Sequence record: ON922919
DNA from: Escherichia phage vB_EcoM_PD205
DNA: 64,000 nucleotides
Strand: one strand, 5' to 3'
Under the pieces are notes generated by a model. The model saw nothing but the letters and a program-made list of their open reading frames with translations, made no database searches and had not been told where the DNA came from. Below, one piece after another: positions 9,627 to 45,482 of this stretch. Both the position numbers and the translations under genes were made by a program. Position 1 is the stretch's first letter. The number at the start of each line of letters is the position of its first letter.

Positions 9627-9774
9627 TTACCGTTTTCTATCACGGGTCAGTTCATCACCCTAGATACATGTGTATCGTTAGCCTACTAGGTAGGAAAGGA
9701 GCCGGGCAACCCTGACTGTAGAAGTTATTAACTCTTTACGAGTACCGCCACTGTCTACTAGGCGGCATGACTAA

Positions 9775-12514: not shown

Positions 12515-13225
12515 ATGCAAAAATTATCGGAAGTATATCGTGGCCTGGCACTAAGTACCTTGAAAGGTACTGGTGCAGTCACTGATGACAGATTAGATAT
12601 TGAACCAGATAGTAAGCCTGAGATATTAGCTGCTATTAATGAGGGACTGGTACGACTGCATAGTCGTTTCCCTCTTAGAACTAATAGCTGCATTGTGGAG
12701 ATGAAGGAAGGTCGCACTGATTATCCCCTTCAATCTAAGTATGCTTACTCCAGATTTACTAAGCCTACTCTTGAGATTCAATACCCGTATATCATGGATG
12801 GGTTCATGAAACCTTTCCAGGATGACGTTATTAAAATCTTAAATGTGTTTGATAACTCAGGGAATCGACGTAGACTGAACGACGATTCAGACCCCCATGC
12901 AATCTTCACCCCAAGACCGGATACTATTCAGTGTATGCGACCTCGACACTTCGAGGCACTTAACGTAACTTATCAAGCTAAGCACCCTGTACTTACGGGT
13001 GATGAAGAACAGGAAGTTGACTTAGCAGACACGCTAATGACAGCACTTCATAACTGGGTGGGTTATCGTTACCACACTGGTTTAAATACTCCGGAAGCTA
13101 ATGCTAAGGCAGCAGAGTATCTGCAAACGTATGAAAGCATCTGTGGTGAGGTTGTTGATTATGACCTGGCTAATGGAAGTATTTCAATTACCGAAACTAA
13201 ATTTGAACAACGAGGATGGCGATGA
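12515..13225 (+). CDS. hypothetical virion protein
   Basis: 236 aa; GAGGAA RBS; between terminase and tail fibre genes. Confidence 0.4.
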   Translation: MQKLSEVYRGLALSTLKGTGAVTDDRLDIEPDSKPEILAAINEGLVRLHSRFPLRTNSCIVEMKEGRTDYPLQSKYAYSRFTKPTLEIQYPYIMDGFMKPFQDDVIKILNVFDNSGNRRRLNDDSDPHAIFTPRPDTIQCMRPRHFEALNVTYQAKHPVLTGDEEQEVDLADTLMTALHNWVGYRYHTGLNTPEANAKAAEYLQTYESICGEVVDYDLANGSISITETKFEQRGWR

Positions 13226-15930
13226 ACGCACATACCCCCTTTGATGCAAATCAGGATTGGACCAATCCTTACTGCCAGAATAGTTCCAACGACCCAATGG
13301 TAGATGCACTACTTGGTAATGCTTACCATGTGGTTCGTACTGTGTACTGCAACCTAGGTAACCTTAAACTCATTTATGATTTCTTGAATAAATATGGAAT
13401 GGTGTTAGGTGTTCAATCAGAAACTGAACTGAAGGCCATGCCTACCAGTGCATCCTATGTACGACTGTATGGTTTTGATAATACCAATAAGAGAGTTGTT
13501 ACAGACTATCTGTATGTAGATGGGGATCGTACAGGTGTAATTCCGGATGACCCTTCCGCTACTGGTTCCTGGATTTTGGTTGCTACTTCTAATTCAGATA
13601 GTGGTGGAGATGATGGTGAAGGTAAAGCATCACCACCATACATTCCATACTCATATAATAATGGTTCTGCTATCGGGGGAGAAACCACTATTGCAGTACC
13701 TGTTGGTACGGTTGGCGTGCCAATGATTGTAATTGATGGCTATACCAACTTGGTTGGTTATGGTTTTACTTATGATGCATCTACACTAACTGTTACCCTG
13801 GCTCAACCATTGGAACCAGGTGATGAAGTACATCTGTTCTTGACAGGTACTCCAGCAGTTCCTGATAACCCTAATGTAACTGACTGGGTTCAGATTAACT
13901 GGTTATACAATGGTGGTTATGCTTCTGGCGGTGAACAGGTAATTCAGATTCCATACACCTTCCAATCTGTGCCTGCTATTTATAAGAATGGTGCTCGTTA
14001 TTATGCTGGTCTGGTAGAGAACTCATATACTGCTGATGCTGATAACCAACGTATTCTGTTAACTGAGCCACTGGCAACTAATGACCGTCTTATCGTTACT
14101 ATCGGCGGTGAGTCTGAGACATTGATTATGACTGACCGTACCATTCAGGAAGTGGCACGTTCAGCTAATGTTAAAGATACTGAAATTATTCTGAGTACTA
14201 ATACTACCCAGTACCTCAATGGTATGAAGGTTGTCTATGACGTAGTTGCTCAAAAGATTTATGGTCTGCCGACGTTACCGACCAATGTCTATATTAATTC
14301 TGTATCTAATGGTCAGTTAACTTACTCACCAGGAAGTATTACCGTAAACCTGTTACCTGTTCCAGGCTCCATGGAAGAATTTGAAAATAAACTAGCTTTG
14401 GATGTAGGAGCTTCTACTATTGGAACTGAGTCCGGTAAGACTGTCCAAGAAGAGTTGGATACTTTAGAAGAAACATCAACGATTCTTGCGAATAGTATCT
14501 ATAAGCCCATACCTGTTAAATATTCCCCAAATTATTCTCAGGTAATGGTGGCATCAGTTAATCCGCAAGGTCTAGCCCAGGATGCTACTTATTGGTACAT
14601 TACAGAAGATACCTCTTCTGGTGGTGCTTACACTTGTACCCTAAGTCGTATTAATAAGGTTACCAATACCAAAGAATCATTCCCAGGTACGTTTGGTACA
14701 CATGGGCAAGGCATCGGTATTCTCCCCTCTGGCGAAGTATTCATTGGAGGGGCTACTAACAGTTTTATCACAGTAATTAACTTCGCAGCAGGTACTTCTT
14801 ACCAGGTAGCCTGTACTGGTTTTATGAAAGATTTTCCTTTCTGCTATGACAGTAAAACTGATTTGATTTACCAGTTACAGGATGCTGATGGTACATCAGC
14901 TAATATTACTCGTATTGCTGTACTTAGCCGTACCGCTGGTTTTATCTCTGATAACTCTATTGACCGTAAGTTAGTCAAGCCAGGGTATCCACAAGGTATT
15001 ACTACAGATGGAAGTTTTCTGTATGTTACCTGTGGTAATTCTTGGTCTGCTGCTTCTACTGGTACATGGAATGATTACTGGGCTTGCTTTAAAGTTTCCT
15101 TGACAGGACAAGTTATAGAGCGAGCAATGTTCCGTAGAACCTCTATGGGTGTTTTGGCAGGTGGTATTACAGTTACTTCTCACGAACCACAAGCAGTATC
15201 TTGGTTTGAGGGTAAGCTGTCTTTCCTACAGTGTATTGGAAGTTCTTCAGCAACTAATGCTGTAATTTTTACTGAAGATGCTGAAGGTAGTGCAATACGT
15301 GCTGTACCAAAAAACCTTTGGGTAAGCTACTACTCCCTGGATGAACTTGGTATTAATGCTGCATCCTTAGTTGCTGGTTCTGCTCTGTCCACAATTGCAG
15401 CAGCAATGCCTGATAACTCTGATGTAACCTTCTCCCTAAGTAATGAAGCAGCATTACTTGCTGATACAGGTATTGGGTATGGTGTATGTAAGATTACTCG
15501 CGTAAATGCTAACCGAATTAATGCAGTAACTACAGAAGCCAGTTCCGGTTTAACTTCGTCGCAGGTATGTGCTGTATCATACGTTGGTATCTACGGGTCT
15601 GTGCAAAGTGCTCCTAAGCTTTTACGTGGTGTTAAACCAGTAGCACTTGCTTATGAGGGGACTACTGTTGCAACAGCACCCTCTACAATAACAGTTTCCG
15701 GTATTGCAAACTGTAATGAGTTGGTAATCCATATCACTCATACCAGTGGGACTAATCCAGTAACCCCACATAAATTCACAAGAGATGAGATTAGTTATTA
15801 CGTTACAAATGCTACAACTCTCTATCTTGGTGATGGTACTGGGTTTATGTCTTGCCAGTTTACATCTACCGGGTTATCCATTACAGGTGTCACTGGTTCT
15901 CCGATTGTTAGACGTGTTCTAACTATTTAA
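13216..15930 (+). CDS. tail fibre / appendage-like structural protein
   Basis: 904 aa; Gly/Ser/Thr-rich repetitive sequence typical of fibre proteins; alternative start ATG 13222 (GAGG RBS). Confidence 0.45.
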   Translation: MAMNAHTPFDANQDWTNPYCQNSSNDPMVDALLGNAYHVVRTVYCNLGNLKLIYDFLNKYGMVLGVQSETELKAMPTSASYVRLYGFDNTNKRVVTDYLYVDGDRTGVIPDDPSATGSWILVATSNSDSGGDDGEGKASPPYIPYSYNNGSAIGGETTIAVPVGTVGVPMIVIDGYTNLVGYGFTYDASTLTVTLAQPLEPGDEVHLFLTGTPAVPDNPNVTDWVQINWLYNGGYASGGEQVIQIPYTFQSVPAIYKNGARYYAGLVENSYTADADNQRILLTEPLATNDRLIVTIGGESETLIMTDRTIQEVARSANVKDTEIILSTNTTQYLNGMKVVYDVVAQKIYGLPTLPTNVYINSVSNGQLTYSPGSITVNLLPVPGSMEEFENKLALDVGASTIGTESGKTVQEELDTLEETSTILANSIYKPIPVKYSPNYSQVMVASVNPQGLAQDATYWYITEDTSSGGAYTCTLSRINKVTNTKESFPGTFGTHGQGIGILPSGEVFIGGATNSFITVINFAAGTSYQVACTGFMKDFPFCYDSKTDLIYQLQDADGTSANITRIAVLSRTAGFISDNSIDRKLVKPGYPQGITTDGSFLYVTCGNSWSAASTGTWNDYWACFKVSLTGQVIERAMFRRTSMGVLAGGITVTSHEPQAVSWFEGKLSFLQCIGSSSATNAVIFTEDAEGSAIRAVPKNLWVSYYSLDELGINAASLVAGSALSTIAAAMPDNSDVTFSLSNEAALLADTGIGYGVCKITRVNANRINAVTTEASSGLTSSQVCAVSYVGIYGSVQSAPKLLRGVKPVALAYEGTTVATAPSTITVSGIANCNELVIHITHTSGTNPVTPHKFTRDEISYYVTNATTLYLGDGTGFMSCQFTSTGLSITGVTGSPIVRRVLTI

Positions 15931-15938
15931 TATCAATT

Positions 15939-15954
15939 CCCCTCTTCGGAGGGG
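15939..15954 (+). terminator. terminator-like hairpin (CCCCTC-UUCG-GAGGGG) after tail fibre gene
   Basis: 6 bp stem with UUCG tetraloop 9 nt after stop; followed by AUUCUU. Confidence 0.45.
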
Positions 15955-15980
15955 GATTCTTAGAATAAAACGAGGCATAT

Positions 15981-18314
15981 ATGAAAGACATGTTCGCTCA
16001 AGGTGGTTCTGGTTCTGCTGGAATCAAAACCAACAAACAAGCTATAGCTAGACACTTTGGTGTTAAGCAATCTGATGTTGTTTATTTCTCTCCCGGTGTT
16101 CCTCTTACCGGATACAAAGTTATTTACGACAAAGAGTCGCAGCGTGCTTACTCATTACCTACTGACATTGGTTCTAGGGTTACTGCTGTAAGTCTTAGTA
16201 CTGCTGGGGTATTGGTTCACTCTGCTGGTAATGTGGACTTGGGTGAATTGGCTGTTACTCGTGGGGAGTATGTGACCTTACCTGGTTCATTCGATACAGG
16301 TGTAACTGTTAATACTAAGAATGAATTGGTTGTCTTTGCTGATGGTAAGTATCGCTGGGACGGGGAGCTTCCCAAAGTAGTGCCTGCTGATTCAACTCCA
16401 GACAGCACTGGTGAGGTTAAATTAGGAGCGTGGGTTGGTGTTGGTGATGCTGCTTTGAGAGGTGATATAGCAAAATTTGATTATAAAGATAAATCATTTG
16501 AAGACTCACTATTAAAAAGACCTTACATTTTTGAGTCAGTATCGGAAATGATTGCTGCTGATTTCACTGGCGTCAAAGATGGCGCTGTAGTTAAAACTTT
16601 AAAAAATGAATTTGGTTTAACATGTGAATCAACATGGCGAATAGCATCTTCTCAATTAGAAACCACCTATAACGTTAGCGTTTCAGGAGGCAGATACGCA
16701 CAACTAGTCATTGAACCTGAAATGTCTTTTGCATCTTTCGGATTTGGTGGCAACGACATACAAAATGCGGCTGCCGTTACAGAGGGCAACCGAGTAGCTA
16801 GGGCGAACCCTATTATGCACACACTGCGATTCCCTGCTGGTGCATTTAATATTGGAGCGTTCACTCTTGATGTGGACCGTCGTGGATTTACTTGGGACGG
16901 GGCTGGATGGGATGGTACATACCTAACTTCTACGTCAAACGGTATATCCATGCATCATATTCTTATCGACCCTAGAAACCGTGCTAGAGACCGAGACCAT
17001 TATTACCAAACAGTTAAAGGTTTTACTATTGACGGCAATATCTCCGGCGTGGGGTCAGCCGCCGCTCAACGAACTGTGTGTTCAGCGCACTACTCTAATA
17101 TTGCGTACAAATCCGTAGGCCATATTTTGTCTAACGTTGACCTTTGTGGATTAGTAATTAATTGGAGGGGACTCACTGGAGGCAGAACTGTCGGCGCCAC
17201 TAGAACCAGTAGGAGTGTGCGCGCAAGGTATAACTCCATAAAGATTGATGGATATATCGGAGGTTCCACTGATAATGCGGTGGCTCTTGAGATAAACGGC
17301 CCGATCACCACTTTGGCTGCTGCCGCAAATATCGGCGATACTACGATAACGGTGTCCTCCGCGGTTGGATTTAGCGTCCACGACATCATCGAGATTGCTG
17401 GCGGAACACTTGACGCCAAAATAATCATCGGGATTTCCGGCAACACACTTACACTTGATAGTGGACTGAATAACGCCCACACTAACGCGGCAACTGTGAG
17501 AGTCCCTGTATTCGGCACATCGGTTACCGGAACCATAGAGGTAGGGCAGATTCAGATAGGTAACTCAAACGGCACTGAATTACGGGGCGCTTACGCAGAA
17601 CAGAGTAAAATCTACATTTACGGATGGCCGAGCGCACTGGAAATCCACGGTAACACACTTGGCCAAGCTGCGCCGCAGATTCAAATTGACCAAGTTAATC
17701 GCCTGTCAACCATCAGGATTGTTTGTAACGATACAGCGTTTCCTATAGCCGTTAACGTTGCGGAGAGAGCCACTGGTGCGGTTAATGCTAACTTAGACCT
17801 TTATAACTTCCCTGAACTTGATATTAGTCAGAACACTCGCGCTCAAAGCAGTATCCTGGTAAATGGAATTTATCCGTTTAAATCACTGCGTACTGAGCGA
17901 TTCTATGATTCGTCAATAAATGACCGCGCTTTCACTAGTTTTAAATTCACTGGGTTTTCGGCAACACAAAACCCGGCGACATCGACGGAGATATTACGAT
18001 TCGCACAAGACGCTGCCCTACGTGGATATGACGGTCACTCATATAGTATCAGTGCCACAATTAGACGTAACACAGGTCTTTCTGGGCTTATAGAGCGTAA
18101 AGGACAAACATCCAATATAGGTGGCGTTATCTCAGATACGACCACAGAAGCATCAAGGACGCTCAGTAGCTATGCGTTCTTCGACCCCACTAATGGCATG
18201 GATATTTTAATCGGCAGTAACACAGGTAGGATGGGAATTGTGCTTAAAGGGGAGCCTTCCAGTGGGCAAGCAATTAAGGCCATGATTAGTGGTGAAATTG
18301 TGAGTGTCATTTAA
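15981..18314 (+). CDS. tailspike / receptor-binding protein with probable right-handed beta-helix C-terminal domain
   Basis: 777 aa; repetitive Gly/Asn/Thr-rich segments (GFTIDGNISGVG, IKIDGYIGGSTDNAV, IEIAGGTLDAKIIIGISGNTLTLDSG) typical of beta-helix spikes; C-terminal two thirds looks GC-richer by eye. Confidence 0.5.
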   Translation: MKDMFAQGGSGSAGIKTNKQAIARHFGVKQSDVVYFSPGVPLTGYKVIYDKESQRAYSLPTDIGSRVTAVSLSTAGVLVHSAGNVDLGELAVTRGEYVTLPGSFDTGVTVNTKNELVVFADGKYRWDGELPKVVPADSTPDSTGEVKLGAWVGVGDAALRGDIAKFDYKDKSFEDSLLKRPYIFESVSEMIAADFTGVKDGAVVKTLKNEFGLTCESTWRIASSQLETTYNVSVSGGRYAQLVIEPEMSFASFGFGGNDIQNAAAVTEGNRVARANPIMHTLRFPAGAFNIGAFTLDVDRRGFTWDGAGWDGTYLTSTSNGISMHHILIDPRNRARDRDHYYQTVKGFTIDGNISGVGSAAAQRTVCSAHYSNIAYKSVGHILSNVDLCGLVINWRGLTGGRTVGATRTSRSVRARYNSIKIDGYIGGSTDNAVALEINGPITTLAAAANIGDTTITVSSAVGFSVHDIIEIAGGTLDAKIIIGISGNTLTLDSGLNNAHTNAATVRVPVFGTSVTGTIEVGQIQIGNSNGTELRGAYAEQSKIYIYGWPSALEIHGNTLGQAAPQIQIDQVNRLSTIRIVCNDTAFPIAVNVAERATGAVNANLDLYNFPELDISQNTRAQSSILVNGIYPFKSLRTERFYDSSINDRAFTSFKFTGFSATQNPATSTEILRFAQDAALRGYDGHSYSISATIRRNTGLSGLIERKGQTSNIGGVISDTTTEASRTLSSYAFFDPTNGMDILIGSNTGRMGIVLKGEPSSGQAIKAMISGEIVSVI

Positions 18315-18327
18315 CTAGATAAAACTA

Positions 18328-18352
18328 AGGCCCCAAATGGGGCCTTTTCTTA
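18328..18352 (+). terminator. rho-independent terminator (AGGCCCC-AAAU-GGGGCCU + UUUUCUU)
   Basis: 7 bp GC-rich stem 18328..18345 followed by T-tract; 14 nt after tailspike stop. Confidence 0.65.
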
Positions 18353-18565
18353 TATAGAGTTTACTGTTTGCATTACCCTAACCGATACTGCTGTTAGGAT
18401 GATTACTTGCCCAAATATGTTAAACATGCCCAATTGAATACCATCTACCACGGATTGATACCAGACACTATGTCTGGATGTACCTCATCATACTAAGTAT
18501 TATCTAAGAGTCATCTTATGATATGACCCTATTGGGGATTCTAACTACACAACTACGGTAATATT

Positions 18566-19140: not shown

Positions 19141-19765
19141 ACAGAAACTTGCTGCGAAAGGTGGTGCAGTGGGAGGAGTTGTCGCTGCTATCCTGGGGGC
19201 AGTGTTTTATATGGAAGGGGGATACGTAAACAACCCTCGTGACCCAGGTGGAGAAACTAATCATGGCATTACCCAATCGGTAGCTAAGACTCATAAAGAA
19301 GTTCTGGCTACTGAGTATGGTTGGGATGGTTCTATGAAAGGTTTATCTAAAGAGATGGCTGCTGAGATATACATTGATGACTACGTACTTAAGCCTAATT
19401 TCGTAGCCTTCGCTGATATATCTCCTGCTGTAACACACAAGCTGGTAGATGCTGGTGTTAACACTGGTGTAACCCGTCCTGCTAAGTGGTTGCAGCAATC
19501 TCTTAATGAAATGTCCCGTGATGGCAAAGACTACCCTAAAATACAGGTTGATGGTAAAGTCGGTACAAGTACTGTTAATGCATATAAAGCATTACAGAAA
19601 AAACGAGGCAAAGTTGCAGCATGTCAGGTAATGATTAAGTTACTCGATGCCAAACAACTGAACCACTACACCTCATTAAACATGTCAGACTTTACGTATG
19701 GTTGGGTAGCTAACCGAATAGGCAATGTGCCACTGGAGGCATGTAATGAAGATGCTAATCTCTAA
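19130..19765 (+). CDS. SAR endolysin, GH108-type N-acetylmuramidase
   Basis: 211 aa; N-terminal Gly/Ala-rich weakly hydrophobic segment (KLAAKGGAVGGVVAAILGAVFY) typical of signal-anchor-release domains; EGGYVNNPRDPGGETNHGIT matches recalled GH108 motif; AAGGAAG RBS. Confidence 0.7.
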   Translation: MKAKQKLAAKGGAVGGVVAAILGAVFYMEGGYVNNPRDPGGETNHGITQSVAKTHKEVLATEYGWDGSMKGLSKEMAAEIYIDDYVLKPNFVAFADISPAVTHKLVDAGVNTGVTRPAKWLQQSLNEMSRDGKDYPKIQVDGKVGTSTVNAYKALQKKRGKVAACQVMIKLLDAKQLNHYTSLNMSDFTYGWVANRIGNVPLEACNEDANL

Positions 19766-20252
19766 AGGTTGGCCTTATCTTCTGGTGGTGGTCCTAGGGG
19801 CCACCATTTACTTTTGGGGTAACTCCAATGGACAGTCCACTGTTCAAAAGAAGTGGGATGACCAAAAGGTTGAAGATCAAAAGGCACTACAAAAATTACA
19901 GGACAAATACAATGCTCTCCAAAGAAACCATAGTTATGAAGTCGGGTTACTCACTTCCCGGTTGCAGACGGCTGAGAGTAATTATGCAAGCGAGCTTGCT
20001 CGCGTTAGCAGTGATTACGACAGCCGGATGCAACAGTCTGAAAGACGAGCATCGGTATATAAACGTCAAGCCGAAGCCGGAACCTTTGAGTGCAGAAGTC
20101 TTGCAAGCCATGCAGCCAGACTCGACAACAGTCTTGAAGAAGGCAGACGTTTGGTTGAAGAACTCAGGGCAACTGTTAGACTCCGTGACAGCCAACTAAT
20201 TGAGTTGGGTAAACAGATTCAGGCTGACCGTAAACTTTTTGAACAGGAATAA
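19746..20252 (+). CDS. i-spanin (Rz-like)
   Basis: ORF track 19725..20252; ATG 19746 with GGAGG RBS; N-terminal TM ([25 protein letters not shown]) followed by coiled-coil-like charged region. Confidence 0.55.
19936..20199 (+). CDS. o-spanin (Rz1-like lipoprotein) embedded in +1 frame of i-spanin
   Basis: Within ORF 19828..20199; lipoprotein signal with lipobox ([12 protein letters not shown]); alternative start ATG 19984; GC-rich local composition. Confidence 0.5.
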   Translation: MKSGYSLPGCRRLRVIMQASLLALAVITTAGCNSLKDEHRYINVKPKPEPLSAEVLQAMQPDSTTVLKKADVWLKNSGQLLDSVTAN

Positions 20253-32088: not shown

Positions 32089-32148
32089 ACTGGCTTACTG
32101 TAGAGTAAGTTACCTATATACGATATAAGTTTGAATAGGAAACATGCT

Positions 32149-35100
32149 ATGTCAACATTTGACCGTCTGGCAGGTTTCGCAGACAGCATCACTAATGCTA
32201 AGCAAGTCGATGTCTCTACTGCAACCTCCCGGAAGCAAGCTGCACAGGGGCAAAGCCCTTTCCAATTAACCCCAGATAATGCTTACAATCTCCAGACTGG
32301 ACGAGTAGGTAATCTTGGAATCGGTGCATACGAACCAGGTTCACTTCAGGCAGATTTCACTCAAGCCTCCCCCTTAGAAATCATTAATAAGTATGGTAAT
32401 GAGCAAGGTCTACAGATTCTTAATAGTCGAGCTAATGCTGCTGATGCTGTACGTCAGGACTTATCTAAACAACGTACTAACGCAGAAGCATTTGGCGATA
32501 TTCTTTCTGGTGTTGGTCTTGGTGTTGCTAATACCCTTGGGGGCATTGCTGCTCTTGGCACAGGCTTGGTCAATGATAATGCCGGGGCATCCATTGCTTC
32601 CGGGCTTGACTGGTTGAATAAAGGTGTACACAACCTACAGTCTGATGCATTGAATGCTCGTCGTAATGTAGTACAGAACCAGAACGTAATATCTGCACAG
32701 GAGAATGATAAACTCTATAAGCAGGATATTGCTAAAGGAGAAAGTGAACTCGTTGCTTCCCTGTCTCGAATTGGTCGTGATGCTTATGATTCTGTCACTA
32801 ATACACTTGATAATGGCATGGCTGCTACAGATGGCCTGGCTGAGGGCGTTGGTTCTCTGTTTACTGGTGGTCCACTAATTCGTGGTGTATCTGCACTCGG
32901 TAAGGTAATGGTAGGTGGTGATAAAGCTGTTAAGGGCATTACCTTAGCTGCTGAGTTAGGTTCACGTCCTGCACGGATTGCACAGTCTGCTGGGCGTATT
33001 GCTGCGCCTGCTATAGCAATTGGTGGTATGGAAGCTGGTGGTGCATACCAACAAACTGCCAATGAAATTATGGAAATGCCATTCAGTGAACTGGCTGCTA
33101 AATCTCCTGTATACCAACAGCATATTAAAGACGGTCTGTCTCCTGAAGAAGCACGACGTCAGACTGCATCTGAAACAGGTATCACTGCTGCTGGCTTAAC
33201 TGCTCCAGTTGCTGCTCTTACTGCTCCACTGGTATCCAAGTTTGAACTTAACCCACTCAAGGTAGGTTCACTGGCTGGTGCTGGTTCTAACATGCTGCGT
33301 GAGACTGTAGAAGAAGGTATCCAGTCTGGTACTAGCCAGCTTGCACAGAACAAGGCAATTCAGGGTAATGTAGATGCTAAGCGTGATTTGCTTAAAGGCG
33401 TGGGTGAACAAACCGGTCTTGGTGCATTGTATGGCTTCGGTTCTGCTGGAGTTGCTCAAGCTCCTGGTACAACTGTTAAGGCTGCTGGTGCTGCCGTTGG
33501 TCCTGCTGTACGTACTACCCTGGCTGGTGCTTCTCTGGCTGGTAAGGCACTAGCAAAAGTAGCTTCCCCTATTACTACCATCCTGGTTCAACGTGGTGAA
33601 GAAGTTGCTAAGCGTAATGAACAAGCATCCCCTGTATCAGACGCTACAGTTAACGCTGCTGCACAGGAAGCCACTGCTCAGGCAGAACAAGCACAAGCAA
33701 CTGTTCAGGAAGCAGTAGATGCAATGGATATTTCTCCTGAAGAGAAAACTGCTGCTACTCAGTATGCTGCTGATTTAACTCAGGCAATGAAGTTTGACCC
33801 TGTAGAACTGGAGCAAGCTAGTCCGACAATCCGTGAAGCTGTTTCTGGTTCTACTAACCGTGTTGAAGCTATTCAGAAGATGGCTGACCTGGTTAATACT
33901 GCTGAAGACCCTAACGTTCAAATGGAAGCTGCAATCCAGATGTATGACAACATCATGTCTATGGATAGCTTCATTAACCGTGACCCAGGTGCATTAGCTA
34001 ATCTAGAACAAGGTTCTCCTGCTGCTGCAATCGTAGACCAGTTCTCCGGACTGATGGCTAACGTTCAGAATACACCGAAGGTACTCCGTGCATTCCGTGC
34101 TATCCATTCCATGATTCAGGAACAGGCAGAAGCAGGTAAACTGAAAGCCACTGAAGAAGCTAATCAAGCCCAGGCAAACAACATTGCTATGGCTGCTGAT
34201 ATGTCTCCAGAAGTACTGGATGCAGATTCAGTTAACATGGTTCTGAAACACGCAAGTGAAGGTAAGATTACACTTGGGAATCGTCAGCGTGCTGCCCTGC
34301 AATCTGCTGCTGCTTTATTGCAAGGAGCACGAGAATTTGACGCTAAAGCAGAAGAACTAGGCTTACGTCCTCAAGACATTGTTAGTAAACAGATTAAAAC
34401 CGACGAATCTCGTTCTAATGAAGGTCAGTACTCTGCGTTGCAACACGCTAAACGCATTCGTTCTGCGTACAACTCTGGTAACTTCGATTTGGCTTCCGCT
34501 TATCTCGACGACTTTATGAAGTTCGCCCAGCACATGCAGAATAAGGTCGGAGCGTTGAATGAGCATCTGATTTCTGGGAATGCGGATAAGAATAAGTCTG
34601 TCCATTATCAGGCTCTTACTCCCTCGCGTGAATGGGTACGTAGTCGTACTGGCCTCGGTGTCAATCCGTATGATACCAAGTCTGTTAAGTTTGCCCAGCA
34701 AGTAGGACTGGAAGCCAAGACCGTAGCTGATATTGCTAACGCACTTGCTACGGCTTACCCGGAGCTTAATGTTTCTCATGTGAAGGTTACCCCATTGGAT
34801 TCACGTCTGGACAAGCCTGCTGCCCAGGTAGTTAAAGAGTTCCGTCAGGGCAATCTTGATGCTGCTCAATCCCAACAGACCAATGAACCAGTGAATCAGG
34901 TTGATGAAACTCCTGTTACGAAACAGGAACCAGTTACCCCTACTGTACAGACTAAACCCTCTGTTAGTGAAGCTGTTAAAACAGAACCTACTAATAAAGA
35001 GTCTAATCCACAGACTGCAAAAGAACCTGAGAACCAGTCTGAAAAACAGGATACCATCAAGCAGTCTACTGAATCTGAAAGGGATGCTTATGTAAAAGAG

Positions 35101-38100
35101 AATACTATTTCCCAGGATACTCTTAATAAGTACGGTGACCGTAGGGAGAGTCCGTGGCTCTTTGCAGATGGTACTGTTGTTGGTTCTAATGGTGACCATA
35201 TCAGCCTGTCTGATGTATTTGGTCATGATGGTTATCGTGATATGTCATTAGATACTGGTGCTATTCGCTCCACTTTCTACAAAGGAAGTGAGCAACCATT
35301 TGTATCATTACAACTGTTTGATAATCAAAAGCTGACTCCTGAACAATTTAATACTGTTCAATCATTCGTAGAAGCAAACAATGCACTGATTCAGGTTGGT
35401 GTAGATACGTCTGGGCGTAATACCAATAACGTTAAGAAGGAAGAAGTATCACTGGCTCAACTGAAAGCAGACTATACCGTTGGTGGTAAACCTCTATCGG
35501 AAATGGAAACAGTGTTCCCTGTCTATAACAATGACAAGACACCGAACCAGTTCCTGAAAGCATTTACCCTTCCGGAAGAACCTAAGTCTCGTACCATTGG
35601 TTCTGAATCTCCTTTGACCGATGTTAAGAAAGCACTATCCTCTGTTGCTCGCTTTGAGGCATTCACTCAAAAAGAAAATAACGCTCTCACAAGTGATGTG
35701 ATTAAGCGTTACCAGGACTTGTTTGATTTTGGTGAAACTCTGAAGACTACCTTGTCTGACCGTCTTGCTAAGTTCCTTGCTAATAAGAATGTTGGTAAAC
35801 GCTTTGCAGAAGGTACTGAGGCTAATCGTTGGGTAGGTGGCAAACTGCTTAACATCGTAGAGAAAGATGGAGACACCTTTAAGTTCAATGACCAGTTGTT
35901 AGAGACTGCTGTACTTGCTGGTCTGCAATGGCGACTGACTGCTACACAGAATGCTGCCATTAAAGACATGAAAGACGTAGCTGCTATTACTGGTGTAGAA
36001 GCATCCCTGTTACCTGAAGGTATTCTGGCTGACTTCGAGAATGCTCAGACTCTGGTGGAAGCCACTAACTCTCTGGCTCAAAAGATTGAATCTTATTGGG
36101 GTTTGAATCGTAATCCTAATGCACCCCTGGGTTATACCAAGGGTATCCCAATGGCAATGGCTACAGAGATTCTGTCTTCTCTCATTGAGATGGGTGAAGT
36201 TAAAGAGTCTATGCTGGATGTGTCTGAGATTGACCCAGAATCCAATAAGACTGTTGGTCTGTATACCATTGAGAAGCTGGATGATAACGATGCCATTAAC
36301 AAATTCCCTACTGCTATTGAGGAAGCTGTCCTCGTAGAACCAGTAGAGAAACTGTACCTGGGTGATGATATTCCTTCCGTGGCTCAAACTCAGTTACGTA
36401 ACCCGGCTGTCAAGAATACCCCGGAACAGAAAGCTGCTCTTAAAGCAGAACAGGCTACTGAGTTCCGTGTACATATGCCGATGGTTAACTTCTACGAAGC
36501 ATTGGGTCGTGACAACATTCTGGAACTAATGGGTGCTGGTGCTCTTACCCCAGAATTGCTGAATGTGAATACTGCTAAATCTCTGGAAGGTAAAAACCTA
36601 TCCGTGTCTATGGCATATGATTCCTTGTTTGGTGTAATCAATCAGATTAAGGAACAAGAGAATGGACTGGATACACCTATCCACTATGGCTACAACATGA
36701 CCCGTGTAGGTCGTATGCAGATGCTTGGTAAGAACAACCCACAATCCAGCAAGCTGGTACGTGAAGCAATCCTACCAACTTTCTCTACCATCGACTTGAG
36801 TAATGAAAACAGCCAAACGTTCTCTGACTTCCAGCTTGGACTGGCTCAGGCATTGGGTATCAAAGTTCATAAAATGTCCCGTGAAGTTATGTCGGATGAG
36901 CTGACTAAAGCTCTGGAAGGTAAATTGAAACCTGCCGTTGATATGATGGTTGAGTTTGATAAGTCTGGGCACTTACCTACTGATGCTGTGGATATTCTGA
37001 AGACCTCTTTGGGTAATGATAAATCATTTGTAGCTCTCATGGCTCTGATGGAGTATGCCCGTTACTTGAACAGTGATGACCGAGCCAACTTTAATACTCC
37101 ACTGTACGTTGAAGCTGATGGTGTAACCAACGGGCCAATCAACGCAATGGTATTAATGACTGGTGGTAAGTTCACTTCAGACTGGATTAAGAATACTGCT
37201 AAGGGTGGTTTGTTCTTCGGTAAAGCAGGTAAGACCATGAACGAGCATCATTCGCATGAGGACAGTGTTGACCTGTATGAAGCATCCACTAATAGTCTAC
37301 AACAGGCACTGAATGAATTACGTAGTACTTATCGTAACAACGTTCCTGTTACGAACCAGATGAAGCATCTTCAGAAGTTAATGGACCTGTTCATTAAAGA
37401 CTTCAATCTTAATGAAGATGGTACTCTGGACCTGAAACGTGGTATCGCTAAAAACCCACTGACTATTACCATCTATGGCTCAGGTGCTCGTGGTATTGCA
37501 GGCAAGATGGTTAGTGCAATTACTGACACCATCTACGAACGCTTCAGTGACGTTCTACAAGCCCGTGCTGCTGACCCTAGCATTTCCCCAGCTATGGCTA
37601 TGTTTGGTAAGGAGGCTGCGTCTGAGGCCGATGCTCAGGCTATGCTGGATACTTTCCTTACTTCTATGGAAGCACTGACTGGTAATGTTCCAGTTATGCG
37701 TAAAGGTGAACTGTCTATTCAACAAGCAGAGGGTGCTCTGTCTGGTAAGTTAGACCCCCAGAAGTTTACCGTATCTGGCAATGCTCTGAAGAACCTGCAA
37801 GAGAATATGCTTCACCTGTTCGTTGAACCAATGCGTACTGGTATCCGAAATACCGTTGGCGAAGGTCTGATGCACTCTACTGAGAACTTGCAGAAGGCTA
37901 CTCAGATTCAATCTCTGGTATTGCAGGATATGTTCCAACAAGCAGTACAGGCTAAGCTGACAGAAAAAGAAAAAGACCCAACATGGAAGAAAGGTGATTT
38001 CTTAACACAGAAAGAACTAAATGAAATCCAGGCTTCATTATCTCCACTGGCTCCAATGATTGAGACTGGTTCTCAGACTTTCTACATTGCTGGTAGTGAG

Positions 38101-41100
38101 AATACTGATGTTGCTAACCAAGTATTGGCTACTAACTTAGATGACCGTATGCGTGTGCCAATGAGCATTTATGCTCCTTCACAGGCAGGTGTTGCAGGTA
38201 TTCCATTTATGACCATCGGTACTGGTGATGGCATGATGATGCAGACCCTTTCTACTATGAAAGGTGCTCCGAAGAATACCCTGAAAATCTTTGATGGTAT
38301 GAACATTGGCATTAATGACATCACTGATGCAAGCCGTAAAGCTAATGAGGCTGTATATACTTCCTGGCAGGGCAATCCTATCAAGAATGTTTATGATTCC
38401 TTTGCTAAGTTCATGAAGAATGTAGACTTCAGCAAACTGTCTGATGAAACCAAACAAGCTATCGCTAAGTCTGCTCTGGAGTATGACCAGCGTGAGGGTG
38501 CTACTGATGACCTGTTACGTGTTGGTGCTGAACAGATTGAACGTAACCTGCGTAACATTGCTTTAGGTGTAGATATTCGTCACAAGGTAATGGACCAGGT
38601 ACAAGTCACTGTTGACCAGATGGCTGCTGTAGGTGCTCCTTATGTGAACAACGGTAAAATCTCTTTGGAAGGTCTGACTGTAGACCAGCAAGTAGCTAAG
38701 CTGAACGAACTGTTTGATGCTGAATTAAACAAGCGTCGTGATGCAGTACGTGCTGCTAAAGCAGAACCAGTGAAAGAAGTACCAGCTATGGAACAGGTTG
38801 GTCGTGTACTGAAGTCTGGTGTACGTCTGCTGTCTAATACTGCTATCGCTAAACTGGCTAAAGAGATGTCTCCTGAACAACAAGCAGTATTAAAAGAAAT
38901 ACAGAAATCCCTTGCTGCCAAAGACTATAAGGTTGTTTACGGTACACCTTCTCAACTGGATGCTTATGCTATTGAGAAGAACATTACTCGCCCAGCACCG
39001 GAAGATATTGAAGCTGCTGAAGCAGGTAATGCATATGGCTGGACTAACTTTGAAGATAAGACCATCTACTTAGTTACCCCTTCCTTAGAGACTCTGGTTC
39101 ATGAATTGGTACATGCTTCTACTTTTGAATCTGTACTGGCTCACTATGAGGGTACTCCTAATGAAGCAGTCCAGAACATTGAAGACCTGATGAATCAGTT
39201 CCTTACTCTGGATGTTAAGGATGAATCCCCGGCAGTACGTGAAGCATATGCTGATGCACTGAATACCATTAATGGACACCTGTCTAATGGCTTCATTGAA
39301 CCAGCGATGGCTAAAGCTGCTGCGTTGAATGAGTACATGGCATGGGGCTTAACCAACCGTGAACTGATTGGTAAGCAGAAGAAAACTACTGCACTGAAAA
39401 CTATGGTTCAGGCTGTATATGAAGCAATCAAACGTCTGGTATTCGGACGTAAGAAAGCTCCAGCTAATGCAGATGATATGTTCTCTGGCTTACTGTTTAA
39501 CTCTGCTGTAGTAATGCGTGGACAAGCTCCTACTGCTGCTGTAGCCAAAGACACTACCCTGTTCCATAACAAAGCGTATGGTGAAAATACTCGTCTGGAA
39601 GGGCTAGGGAAAACCTTTGATAAGTTGATTACTGACTACATTGGTTCAGAACCAGTACAGCAAGTAATTCGTAAAGGTAAGTTCTCTGATGCAGTAGTGA
39701 ATGCAACTAAAGTAACTCGTGATGTTCAGGCACATGGCTTCACCATGAATATGCAGGAACAGCGTCTATTTACTAACATTGTTGCTGCACTAGCTACCGA
39801 GGCTGCTATTAACCCTGCTGCTTTGGCTCGTGCACAGGAATACTACACACATGTTACTAAGAACCTGACCGTTGAAGCATTCATGGCTGACCCGGATAGT
39901 ACTAACCCTGCTGACCGTTACTATGCACAGCAGAAGTTCGATACCATCATGGGTGCTAACAACATTGAGTTTGATGCACAAGGTCGTTCTTCCTTACTGC
40001 CTACCTTTGTTGGACTGGCAATGGTAAGTGAAGAGGTACGTAAAGTACTGGCTGATATTCCTGTTATGAAAGTAGATAAGAAATCAGGCAATACCGTTGA
40101 TGCAATGCTGACTAACATCGGTACTGCTGCAATGGCTAGTCTGAATGCTCGTGTAGCAGGCGATACTAAAGCTACTAACGTACAGGAAGGTATGGATGCA
40201 CTGGCTCAGACAATCATGCAGACCAGCCTTAATGCAGAATCCTTCTATGATTCCGTTGCTACTCCTACTGGTAATGCTATTGACCGTGCTAACCAGTATC
40301 TGGTGGACTCTATTGATGTACTGTCTACCCGTGCTTTGGAAGGTGCTCGTGAAGTTGCAGCTAATACCAAGAATCCATTGGTTAAAGGTGCTGCTCATGC
40401 TGCACAACTGATAGCTGCTATCGCTACAGAGAAGAATGGTTCAATCGTAGCTGAAGGTGTTATGGCTGCAATGAACCAAGGTAAAGTATGGCAACCTTTC
40501 CATGACCTGGTTAATGACTTAACTGGTCGTACTAAGAGCAATGCTTCTGTTTATGATTTGATTAAAGCAGTACGTGCACAGGTACAGGCTGACCGTCAGC
40601 AATTCCGTGAGCATTTACCTACCACTATCGCATCTAAGTTCAGTCGTAAACTGACTAATGATGAGTGGAGAGCAATGCATACTGGTATGGGTAAGACTGA
40701 CTTAGCTGTTCTGCGTGACACTATGTCTCTGGATGAAATCCGTGACCTGCTGACTGACCAGAAGATTGTTGACCGTGAGGTTAATAAACTGGAAGCAGAT
40801 TTGCAGAAACAAGCCGGACGTAACTGGCCTCTGATTAACCGTAAATCTAAGCAACTAGCTCAGTATATGATTAACGGTACGGTTGGTAATAACCTGCTGC
40901 GTAATGCTACTGCAATTTCTCGCTTGCTGGGGGAACGTAAGACTACACGTTCTGTTGTAGATGTAGCTCAACTGGATAAATTGATTACCCTGTATGCACT
41001 GGAAGCAATGAGTAAGACTGACCGTGAGATGTTATCTTCACTGGCTCAGACAGAAATTGAAGGTATGGATTTTGCTACTTCTTATCTGGTTGGTCAGCGT

Positions 41101-45127: not shown

Positions 45128-45412
45128 GTTCCCCGTTTCTAATACACGGACGGGGACACTCCATGGTCGTTTGATAATCAGGACGACTCACTCCTGACTG
45201 ACGCTTGGCTTATTAGGCTGCCATCAGAACAACATCATCGTTTGCATTTATGTTATTGGTTCGTTTCTAAAAAACCGCATAATCGCTTACGAAAACTATC
45301 AAAGAGTACACTAGCACAGGTAGCTACCCTGCCGTCTTCTCTATTTACACCGGCTACAGTGTAAACCTCCGCACGTTAGCCTAATGTACTCATTGATAGG
45401 ATGTCAGTAGGT

Positions 45413-45482
45413 CGGGGGCTGGATTCGAACCAGCGAGAGAAGTAGCGACCATCTGCACATGCCTACGTGCTACCCCGACCAT
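45413..45482 (-). tRNA. probable tRNA gene (about 70 nt; anticodon uncertain, candidates GCU or CGC depending on loop register)
   Basis: Minus strand: 7 bp perfect acceptor stem (GTCGGGG / CCCCGAC), 4 bp D-stem (GCAC / GTGC) with GG-containing D-loop, perfect T-arm GCTGG-TTCGAAT-CCAGC; anticodon stem imperfect and variable loop short, so needs tRNAscan-SE or ARAGORN confirmation. Confidence 0.45.

Follow-up and report, generated by a model that had tools for sequence, protein, structure and literature searches.

A tailspike gene of the N4-like Escherichia phage vB_EcoM_PD205 very probably combines a lineage-typical anchor with an imported receptor-binding module

The window, i.e., the whole stretch of 64,000 nucleotides analyzed here (record ON922919, Escherichia phage vB_EcoM_PD205), comes from the genome of a G7C-like N4-like phage (Gamaleyavirus). 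It shows N4-like synteny and contains an ORF of 3590 amino acids (32131..42903), which has the size of a virion RNA polymerase. No literature on PD205 was found. The ORF reported in an earlier note on this DNA, which was made from the letters alone, is present and encodes a tailspike of 777 amino acids, identical (100%) to a hypothetical protein of vB_EcoM_PD205. The genes flanking it have a DNA identity of 88-96% to the Gamaleyavirus genomes pSb-1, PBM-3, and ECBP1, with synteny kept. A gp66-like adaptor spike gene adjoins it directly upstream, which in an N4-like genome is the context of a gp63.1-type spike of the branched gp66-gp63.1 complex. The following features were annotated at the locus:

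13216..15930, plus strand: upstream partner spike in the gp66 position, 904 amino acids, whose N-terminal adaptor part is conserved and whose C-terminal domain has itself been swapped
15939..15954, no strand assigned: GC-rich stem-loop CCCCTCTTCGGAGGGG separating the spike genes (minus-strand match of the terminator scan, also seen in the sequence)
15981..18314, plus strand: tailspike gene in the gp63.1 / RBP2 position, 777 amino acids, ATG start
15981..16349, plus strand: resident anchor, aa 1-123, codon usage native to the genome
16254..16448, plus strand: PF18668 Tail_spike_N domain, aa 92-156 (Pfam E 5.2e-23, 81.4 bits against a cut-off of 25)
16350..16475, plus strand: crossover zone, aa 124-165, with nucleotide similarity to both spike groups
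16476..16700, plus strand: AT-rich N-terminal sub-domain of the receptor-binding module, GC 0.33, GC3 0.17 (nucleotide identity and AF2 model)
16701..17150, plus strand: beginning of the beta-helix region, aa 241-390, for which no close relative was found
17151..17510, plus strand: GC-richest beta-helix patch, aa 391-510, GC 0.50, GC3 0.49, nearest relative L010
17511..17960, plus strand: last part of the beta-helix together with the beginning of the C-terminal domain, aa 511-660, nearest relative L011
17961..18314, plus strand: C-terminal beta-sandwich domain, aa 661-777, nearest relatives L004, L005, and L012 with 78-97% nucleotide identity
18327..18346, plus strand: intrinsic terminator AAGGCCCCAAATGGGGCCTT followed by a T-run (terminator scan), probably imported together with the module

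In the upstream spike, aa 3-476 are matched by PHROG 12242 ('tail protein'). Its DNA homology to Gamaleyavirus pSb-1 stops at 14357 and restarts exactly at the stem-loop; a stem-loop conserved between the genes 63.1 and 66 has been described (bioRxiv 10.1101/542787). The positions 14133-16132, which mainly cover this upstream spike, are 86.6% identical to Agtrevirus vB_CECAV_050.

The N-terminal domain of the 777-residue spike is homologous to the N-termini of G7C gp63.1 and of CBA120 TSP1, TSP3, and TSP4. Residues 1-167 match CBA120 TSP1 (PDB 4oj5, E 1e-71) and residues 1-163 match G7C gp63.1 (PDB 4qnl, E 2.4e-60). Further matches are PDB 5w6f (E 4.5e-60) and, over aa 1-171, PHROG 7992 and 18484. 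On the nucleotide level the anchor is 68-97% identical to Gamaleyavirus PBM-3 and Kuttervirus LPST94, and its nucleotides 181-450 reach 88-97% identity to PBM-3. The native codon style claimed for the start of the gene was recovered, as aa 1-123 have a codon-fit score of +0.02 and fit the PD205 codon table best.

Homology to pSb-1 and PBM-3 is lost at 16469-16475 and is found again at 18446-18468. The only stretch similar to both spike groups is 16350..16475, with 88-93% identity to the spikes of Gamaleyavirus and Ackermannviridae and 92-94% to the siphovirus spikes L004 and L005. Judged by these alignments, the junction of the modules falls at roughly 16350-16475 (aa 124-165), either within the PF18668 domain or where it ends. 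The module thus does not start after the AT-rich stretch, as had been proposed.

The AT-rich stretch itself had been called a linker, a label which did not hold. The region 16476..16700 has a nucleotide identity of 98-100% to L004 and L005, which are Jersey-like siphovirus spikes, with 1-2 synonymous differences among 54-55 identical codons, and the AF2 model shows it as folded (pLDDT 76-95). It is a folded sub-domain that arrived with the imported module and is not part of the resident half. When the AT-rich stretch and the 3′ end were searched separately in the phage collection, no match was obtained; both are known only from assemblies.

The composition of the spike gene and of the remaining ORFs was as follows:

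46 other ORFs: GC1/GC2/GC3 0.544/0.384/0.376, overall GC 0.435
Spike aa 1-157: GC3 0.31
AT-rich stretch 16452..16649: GC3 0.17, overall GC 0.33
C part 16650..18311: GC1/GC2/GC3 0.498/0.487/0.422, overall GC 0.469

A GC-richer C part with frequent CGC, GCG, and CCG codons had been claimed from the sequence. The higher overall GC stands, as does a GC3 peak of 0.53 at aa 426-525, which belongs to the top 0.5% of windows, and the three GC-rich strings quoted in the earlier note occur once each (17193, 17215, and 17667). The GC3 of the whole C part is only modestly raised (0.42 vs. 0.376), and 9% of the same-size windows in other genes reach this value. GC3 alone is therefore too weak as a test of foreign origin and was rejected; synonymous codon statistics were used in its place. 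Moreover, the C part has a high GC2 and is rich in Gly, Thr, Ser, Ile, and Arg but poor in Lys and Glu, so that part of the GC rise is due to amino acid composition.

With synonymous codons, the difference in codon usage that had been named as a test is clear. Tested against the remainder of the genome, the C part gives a chi-square of 354 (df 40), compared to 37-130 for other long genes, and all 14 of the worst-fitting windows fall in the spike gene (639 genome-wide windows of 120 codons each). The best single change point of codon fit lies after codon 232 (position 16676), near the position 16650 given before. GCG is used 25.3 times per 1000 codons in the C part and 1.8 times elsewhere, which bears out the claimed excess for this codon, whereas the excess of CGC (7.2 vs. 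3.0 per 1000) and CCG (9.0 vs. 5.7) comes from 4-5 codons each. GGC, GGA, AGG, and GCC are also commoner in the C part, and CGT and CCA are rarer. GCG accounts for 2% of the alanine codons of PD205, for 20.5% of those of the spike gene and for 18-31% in the siphovirus loci. Siphovirus codon tables suit each segment of the receptor-binding module better than that of PD205 does, and the anchor behaves in the opposite way. The module carries a codon signature foreign to the resident genome.

The only tRNA of the window, a candidate tRNA-Ala with the anticodon CGC (45409..45480), was considered as the server of the additional GCG codons. This link was rejected, because Gamaleyaviruses with other spikes share the tRNA region at 92-98% and because the candidate scores below the Rfam gathering score.

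The relatives of the two parts differ in distribution and in divergence. The first ~495 nucleotides are common to 349 phage records, none of which (0/349) covers 80% of the gene. For the C part, only 9 records of the phage collection contain relatives, with an amino acid identity of 36-43% and from four unrelated phage types. The two halves are consequently not found together as a rule, as an exchange of the host-recognition module had led the earlier note to expect. A search of 5.8 billion proteins showed that relatives of the module follow PF18668, the P22-type head-binding domain PF09008 or other N-termini. Their carriers are siphoviruses (Jersey/Buchananvirus-like and others), a P22-like and a myovirus-like prophage, Ackermannviridae, a coliphage group with genomes of ~39 kb and a Vibrio phage. 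Siphovirus spikes with a different N-terminus share 74-76% of the amino acids with the C part and nucleotide tracts of 90-100% identity. In IMG/VR 11 loci were found, none of them above 61% identity. The search for a closer donor in complete E. coli genomes gave only one irrelevant match of 124 nucleotides, and among the pattern matches in GTDB representative genomes 0 were confirmed.

Inside the module the nearest relative changes from segment to segment. The region 16701..17150 does not exceed 78% nucleotide identity to any of the 8 homologous genes (best amino acid identity 80-82%). The following segment 17151..17510 is 81-98% identical to L010 and 51-69% to the others, and its patch of 94-98% identity coincides with the GC peak; at 17196-17512, 97 of the 102 informative sites favor L010 over L011 (chi-square 96, permutation maximum 18). 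Further downstream, 17511..17960 is 77-86% identical to L011 and 52-79% to the others. The max-chi-square values reach 270, 240, and 96 against permutation maxima of 18-25. Synonymous differences to the same partners amount to 2-14% in aa 124-220 and to ~60-65% in aa 261-640. By these comparisons, the imported module is a patchwork in which at least five segments differ in their nearest relatives. Most of the close relatives are known from metagenome or SRA assemblies that are unverified, and L010 is a contig of 2.4 kb, so some of the patch boundaries could reflect assembly chimeras in these contigs.

The central domain was identified by structure prediction and fold search as a right-handed parallel beta-helix of the pectin-lyase-like type (about aa 280-615), which confirms the guess made from the repetitive sequence; the C-terminal domain is all-beta in the AF2 model (460-612 in the numbering of the model). 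The residues ~166-777 form a receptor-binding module composed of a small N-terminal sub-domain, the beta-helix and the C-terminal beta-sandwich. Beyond aa ~170 no family of Pfam, PHROGs or NCBIfam was matched, and a PDB sequence search with a profile of 34 sequences matched only the PF18668-type region. In the 34 homologs the Asp, Glu, and His residues D297, D299, D311, D330, D337, H340, D387, E520, and E540 are invariant (protein numbering, i.e., alignment positions plus 165).

The nearest characterized homolog is a domain of AV101 TSP4, which recognizes E. coli O159 and clears lawns (PMC10791037). It is a true homolog of aa ~228-777 of the PD205 spike (42.9% identity over 99% of the query, E 1e-129), but in AV101 it stands behind a long TSP4-type anchor in a protein of 1092 amino acids. 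Since the identity is only 43%, the specificity cannot be transferred, and that of PD205 probably differs from that of AV101 TSP4. In two prophages, the homologous spikes are immediately followed by acyltransferase-type genes (SGNH, or Acyl_transf_3 plus SGNH), which are presumably O-antigen-modifying genes. From this analysis, the module is rather likely, though by no means certain, to be an O-antigen depolymerase, which would bind and cleave the O-antigen of the host and thereby let the virion reach the outer membrane.

It is less probable, at roughly a minority chance that should be taken seriously, that the module is no depolymerase but an adhesin, an O-antigen-modifying enzyme such as the deacetylase G7C gp63.1, or a protein directed against capsule or colanic acid. 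A relative of the neighboring 904-residue spike is annotated with colanic-acid degradation, and conserved acidic positions are the only candidates for catalytic residues in the PD205 module. For a depolymerase speak the many invariant positions in the helix, the clearing zones of the AV101 homolog specific to the O159 O-antigen and the acyltransferase-type genes adjoining the prophage homologs. An SGNH esterase domain like that of the C part of 4qnl was not found, as the alignment stops at aa 163 and Pfam gave no SGNH match.

Taken as a whole, the spike is very probably a mosaic which arose by horizontal exchange, with a lineage-typical anchor and an imported receptor-binding module; the codon usage and the discordant relatives of the two halves support the exchange proposed in the earlier note. 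That the beta-helix diverged within its own lineage without horizontal transfer, possibly at a higher rate than the anchor, with a composition set by amino acid content or structural constraint, would agree with the strong increase of GC2 (0.487 vs. 0.384) in a Gly-, Thr-, Ser-, and Arg-rich, Lys- and Glu-poor domain and with the small rise of GC3. It is contradicted by synonymous codon choice, which is independent of amino acid content and, by a wide margin, the strongest outlier of the genome, by the unrelated sequence of sister Gamaleyaviruses at 16476-18445 and by tracts of 94-100% nucleotide identity to unrelated siphovirus spikes beside synonymously saturated ones, so that its probability is close to nil. 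Hardly more credit can be given to an acquisition of anchor and module as one unit from an Ackermannviridae phage. The gene of Kuttervirus LPST94 does possess both parts (N part 82-83.5% identity in DNA, C part 42% in protein), and the C part of the upstream spike is 86.6% identical to an Agtrevirus gene, but the C part studied here is far closer to the siphovirus spikes, the anchor is shared with PBM-3 at nucleotides 181-450, and in the 5.8-billion-protein search no full 777-residue protein with >90% identity came from Ackermannviridae. The reverse transfer, with the N4-like lineage as the original home of the module and siphoviruses, prophages, and Ackermannviridae as its recipients, is quite unlikely. 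Homology alone gives no direction, and in overall GC L004 and L005 (0.445) hardly differ from the window (0.431). The direction is based on codon fit only, in which all module segments prefer siphovirus tables and the anchor that of PD205; the family is also joined to three or more further types of N-terminus and is mostly found outside N4-like genomes, and the module is absent from other Gamaleyaviruses.

In the mosaic reading, the first ~165 residues form the lineage-typical attachment module, which would dock the trimer onto the neighboring gp66-like adaptor spike (13216..15930). This docking is deduced from the literature on G7C and CBA120; in G7C the trimer docks physically on the XD3 domain of the gp66 protein (PMC8825819). 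The receptor-binding module would have entered by recombination in conserved sequences on either side of it, on the 5′ side where the PF18668 domain ends (16350-16475) and on the 3′ side at the stop codon with the terminator, up to ~18350-18445. The stop codon and the terminator differ from siphovirus locus L012 by one mismatch in 40 nucleotides, and a conserved terminator motif downstream of spikes has been described (PMC10408124). The module would keep the codon style of its source pool, resembling tailspike-bearing siphoviruses of 44-50% GC, and the patchwork would stem from homologous recombination among related spike alleles of several phage families.

The PD205 case confirms rather than extends existing knowledge, as anchor, swap, and flanking motifs are documented for G7C-like phages and Ackermannviridae. 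G7C gp63.1 (PDB 4qnl; Prokhorov et al., 2017; bioRxiv 10.1101/542787) stems from the same genome type and from a locus beside a gp66-like spike, and its ~163 N-terminal residues are homologous to those of PD205, whereas its SGNH esterase C part is unrelated. In G7C-like phages gp63.1 has a conserved N part and a swapped C part (Golomidova et al., bioRxiv 10.1101/542787); the PD205 allele differs from all gp63.1 alleles of the phage collection (best match 43% amino acid identity). Ackermannviridae like CBA120 (TSP1, PDB 4oj5) carry four spikes, whereas PD205 is a podovirus with two, and its beta-helix is only 8-12% identical to those that have been solved. Conserved recombination motifs flank the receptor-binding domains of tailspikes in Gamaleya-, Kutter-, Kaguna-, Kayfuna-, Justusliebig-, and Nouzillyviruses (PMC10408124). 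The PD205 spike fits this description, with its identity with the motifs 1-3 suggested by position only, and differs in its exchange partners, siphoviruses (Jersey/Buchananvirus-like and others) that are represented by assemblies only.

Since tailspike receptor-binding domains set the host range, spotting an imported one shows which part of the genome decides on the host. Taking a host-recognition domain, here a probably sugar-cutting one, from unrelated phages is a well-known route to host change, and PD205 is in this respect an ordinary case. Its domain adds a new allele to a family that has been poorly characterized, and because no cultured phage is >43% identical and no curated family covers it, it is a candidate for a new O-antigen specificity for typing and phage-therapy engineering.

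Only the small-scale patchwork within the beta-helix adds a little to what is usually described. Conceptually, it resembles the sub-domain shuffling of phage receptor-binding proteins in Smug et al. (2023; PMC10684548), as in PD205 likewise fragments of sub-domain size have different nearest relatives. Tentatively, and with the odds slightly against it, the patches inside the one beta-helix, with 94-100% DNA identity to spikes of at least three siphovirus lineages and synonymously saturated tracts between them, may record very recent and repeated homologous recombination between a strictly lytic N4-like podovirus and unrelated siphoviruses that co-infect its hosts. If so, exchange would be finer than the swapping of whole domains at known flanking motifs, and the spike family would constitute a natural map of the crossover points tolerated by a trimeric beta-helix, useful for the construction of chimeric spikes.

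The gene order of the window is that of an N4-like podovirus, including an ORF of 3590 amino acids at 32131..42903, and the DNA around the spike gene is 88-96% identical to Gamaleyavirus (G7C-like, Schitoviridae) genomes, e.g., Shigella phage pSb-1, ECBP1, and PBM-3. The "M" in vB_EcoM_PD205 denotes myovirus morphology; the genome itself is of the N4-like podovirus type. Two large tail genes adjoin in the gp66 and gp63.1 positions. The second one, the ORF proposed in the earlier note as a mosaic tailspike gene, is present together with the three sequence strings quoted for it, and its product (100% identical) is annotated in vB_EcoM_PD205, on a contig of 71,789 bp, only as "hypothetical protein".

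Features of the spike locus
13216..15930 (+), upstream large tail gene, 904 amino acids, gp66 position
15939..15954 (no strand assigned), stem-loop between the gp66- and gp63.1-position genes, from terminator scan and sequence
15981..18314 (+), downstream large tail gene (spike gene), 777 amino acids, gp63.1 position
aa 92-156 of the spike (+), PF18668 (Tail_spike_N) domain match, inside the resident module
16350-16475 (+), crossover zone between resident and imported modules
18327..18346 (+), terminator just 3′ of the spike gene

DNA homology to pSb-1/PBM-3 extends from 15939/15980 to 16469/16475, is then lost, and returns at 18446/18468 with 94-96% identity. The first ~495 nt are common to 349 records of the phage collection (Gamaleyavirus and Ackermannviridae) at 72-83.5%, and none of these 349 records covers 80% of the spike gene. 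Sequence matches to PHROG and PDB end at aa 163-174. From these limits, the resident module comprises aa 1-165. It matches CBA120 TSP1 (4oj5) with an E-value of 1e-71 and G7C gp63.1 (4qnl) with 2.4e-60, and may dock onto the gp66-like spike, as suggested by work on G7C and CBA120 (PMC8825819). The two-part mosaic described before stands, but its junction had been placed after an AT-rich stretch, while the homology ends by about 16475, near the start of that stretch. Relationships also change within the anchor. Over its initial ~200 nt (15981..16180), identity is higher to Kuttervirus LPST94 (72-93%) than it is to PBM-3 of Gamaleyavirus (62-75%), and from about 16180 (16181..16440) the identity to PBM-3 rises to 88-97%.

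Relatives of aa 224-777 were found in only nine records of the phage collection (36-43% identity) from four unrelated phage kinds: Ackermannviridae AV101, LPST94, and Ro121c4YLVW-type, the coliphages ST31 and RDN8.1 (~39 kb), and one phage of Vibrio. A search of 5.8 billion proteins gave 51 relatives (40-76% identity), whose alignments start at about aa 89-104, 161-176, or 1 of the query and whose N-termini carry PF18668, the P22-type head-binding domain PF09008, or no recognised domain. The distributions are discordant and the N-termini varied, so the two halves do not co-occur; a constant pairing, which the earlier note had held to speak against exchange, was not seen (349 records with the N part vs. 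nine with the C part).

Genomic context of loci bearing relatives of the C part
L004, L005: Jersey/Buchananvirus-like siphoviruses
L011-L013: other siphoviruses, with family-A DNA polymerase
L007: P22-like prophage in a 775-kb contig
L008: myovirus-like prophage

The GC1/GC2/GC3 of the 46 other ORFs is 0.544/0.384/0.376. In the spike gene, GC3 is 0.31 for aa 1-157 and 0.17 in the AT-rich stretch 16452..16649 (GC 0.33); 16650..18311 has a GC of 0.469 and GC1/GC2/GC3 of 0.498/0.487/0.422. Much of the rise in the C part is due to second codon positions, i.e., to amino acid content (Gly 10.8%, Thr 9.2%, Ile 9.7%, and Ser 9.2% vs. Lys 1.8% and Glu 3.2%). Its GC3 is only moderately high: among windows of the same size from other genes, 9% reach this value. 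The peak (0.53, aa 426-525) lies in the top 0.5%. Tested against the remaining genome, the C part has a synonymous chi-square of 354 (df 40), compared with 37-130 for ten other long genes, including that of 3590 amino acids. When codon fit was scored per codon in 639 windows of 120 codons over the entire 64-kb window, the 14 worst-fitting windows all fell within the spike gene from codon 301 onward. The best single change point follows codon 232 (position 16676), close to the switch in codon style noticed before at ~16650. The C part over-uses GGC, GGA, AGG, and GCC and under-uses CGT and CCA. The claimed excess of GCG is real, with 25 per 1000 codons vs. 1.8 elsewhere; CGC and CCG are weaker examples. 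The proposed shift in composition is therefore strongly confirmed in codon usage and to a moderate degree in GC (GC3 0.422 vs. 0.376), and synonymous codon choice, rather than GC3, is the decisive evidence for a foreign C part.

Outside the spike gene, windows with comparably low codon fit (-0.37 to -0.45) occur only where two ORFs in different frames overlap (19725..20252 with 19828..20199), in a region annotated as spanin in relatives; the gene embedded in the other frame is the likely cause. The gp66-position spike (13216..15930) is mosaic too: its homology to pSb-1 stops at 14357, and 14133..16132 shows 86.6% DNA identity to an Agtrevirus spike (Salmonella phage vB_CECAV_050) annotated for colanic-acid degradation. 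In contrast to the spike gene downstream, it shows no deviant codon usage (chi-square 55.6, p 0.06).

Nucleotide identity to L004/L005 was taken from codon-aligned sequences, and synonymous differences were counted among identical residues.

Spike gene compared with L004/L005 (nucleotide identity; synonymous differences)
aa 124-165: 92-94%; 8-14%
aa 166-220: 98-99%; 2-4%
aa 221-260: 83-84%; 27-30%
aa 261-640: 61-67%; about 60-65% (saturated)
aa 641-760: 89%; 21-23%

Being near-identical to L004/L005 over aa 166-220, the AT-rich stretch belongs to the imported module and is not the linker in front of it that had been assumed. The matching stretch in L004 is AT-rich to the same degree. In the AlphaFold2 model of the spike, the stretch is folded (pLDDT 76-95).

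Nearest relatives along the spike gene (nucleotide identity)
16341-16700: L004/L005, 87-100%
16701-17150: no close relative, at most 78%
17151-17510: L010 (a 2.4 kb contig), 81-98%
17511-17960: L011, 77-86%
17961-18311: L004/L005/L012, 78-97%

The stop codon and terminator (40 nt) show one mismatch to L012. Max-chi-square values on informative sites were 270 (L004 vs. L010), 240 (L004 vs. L011), and 96 (L010 vs. L011), with permutation maxima of 18-25, and L010 is favoured at 97 of the 102 informative sites in 17196-17512. These data support a finer patchwork, in which the nearest relative changes along the gene. Within the gene, GC is highest in the L010-like patch (GC 0.50, GC3 0.49; the L010 gene also has a GC3 of 0.49), so that the GC peak seen before corresponds to one patch.

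For the anchor (aa 1-123), the PD205 codon table fits best (-1.47 bits per codon vs. -1.66 and -1.77 for siphovirus tables). For the receptor-binding module, the siphovirus-locus tables (-1.74 and -1.78 overall) beat that of PD205 (-1.90), and do so in every segment. The share of GCG among Ala codons is 2% for PD205, against 18-31% for the siphovirus loci and 20.5% for the spike gene. Judged by codon usage, import into the N4-like genome is favoured over export. Module copies have a GC of 0.42-0.47 whether the locus around them is at 0.43 or 0.51, and the module therefore looks GC-rich against the present genome and AT-rich against the P22-like prophage. Codon fit, relatives, and the homology break support the suggested horizontal exchange of the host-recognition module, with a corrected boundary.

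Modelled by AlphaFold2 from 34 homologues (mean pLDDT 88.6, pTM 0.86), aa 166-777 form a small alpha/beta sub-domain, followed by a long series of short strands (about aa 280-615) and a C-terminal domain that is all beta (about aa 625-777). The C part is probably an O-antigen depolymerase, because the homologous domain of AV101 TSP4 (43% identity) recognises E. coli O159 and makes clearing zones (PMC10791037), and because acyltransferase-type genes lie directly downstream of homologous spikes in two prophages. The SGNH esterase of G7C gp63.1 is not a relative of the C part. The prophage genes, an SGNH gene (L007 10262..11215) and an Acyl_transf_3 plus SGNH gene (L008 10625..12460), each directly follow the spike gene on the opposite strand. 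We read them as O-antigen-modifying; spike and lysogenic-conversion acyltransferase may form a paired module there.

For G7C-like phages, gp63.1 and gp66 are described as keeping their N parts while exchanging their C parts between unrelated alleles, with a conserved stem-loop separating both genes (bioRxiv 10.1101/542787, Golomidova et al.). The same pattern is found here, including the counterpart stem-loop at 15939..15954. Many receptor-binding-protein subtypes are described for Gamaleyavirus, together with conserved recombination motifs that flank the receptor-binding domains of tailspikes (PMC10408124), and the crossover zone and the terminator agree with such motifs by position. In AV101, a short region of nucleotide identity immediately upstream of the beta-helix is a likely recombination site (PMC10791037). 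Given these precedents, the earlier note correctly recognised a mosaic of a known kind; the spike allele itself is new and uncharacterised. The mosaic reading of the gene is supported, with the corrected boundary and the finer patchwork. Just past the terminator, TATATAGAGTTTACTGTTTG (18350..18370) also occurs downstream of AV101 TSP4 (L009, about 9700-9720) and may be a further conserved flank between Ackermannviridae and Gamaleyavirus spike cassettes.

The sole tRNA call in the window, a tRNA-Ala at 45409..45480 (-), has the anticodon CGC and would read GCG, a codon nearly avoided by the genome (31 of 1533 Ala codons if the spike gene is left aside). It scores below the gathering score of the Rfam tRNA model; the region is 92-98% conserved in some Gamaleyaviruses and annotated as tRNA-Ala in St11Ph5.
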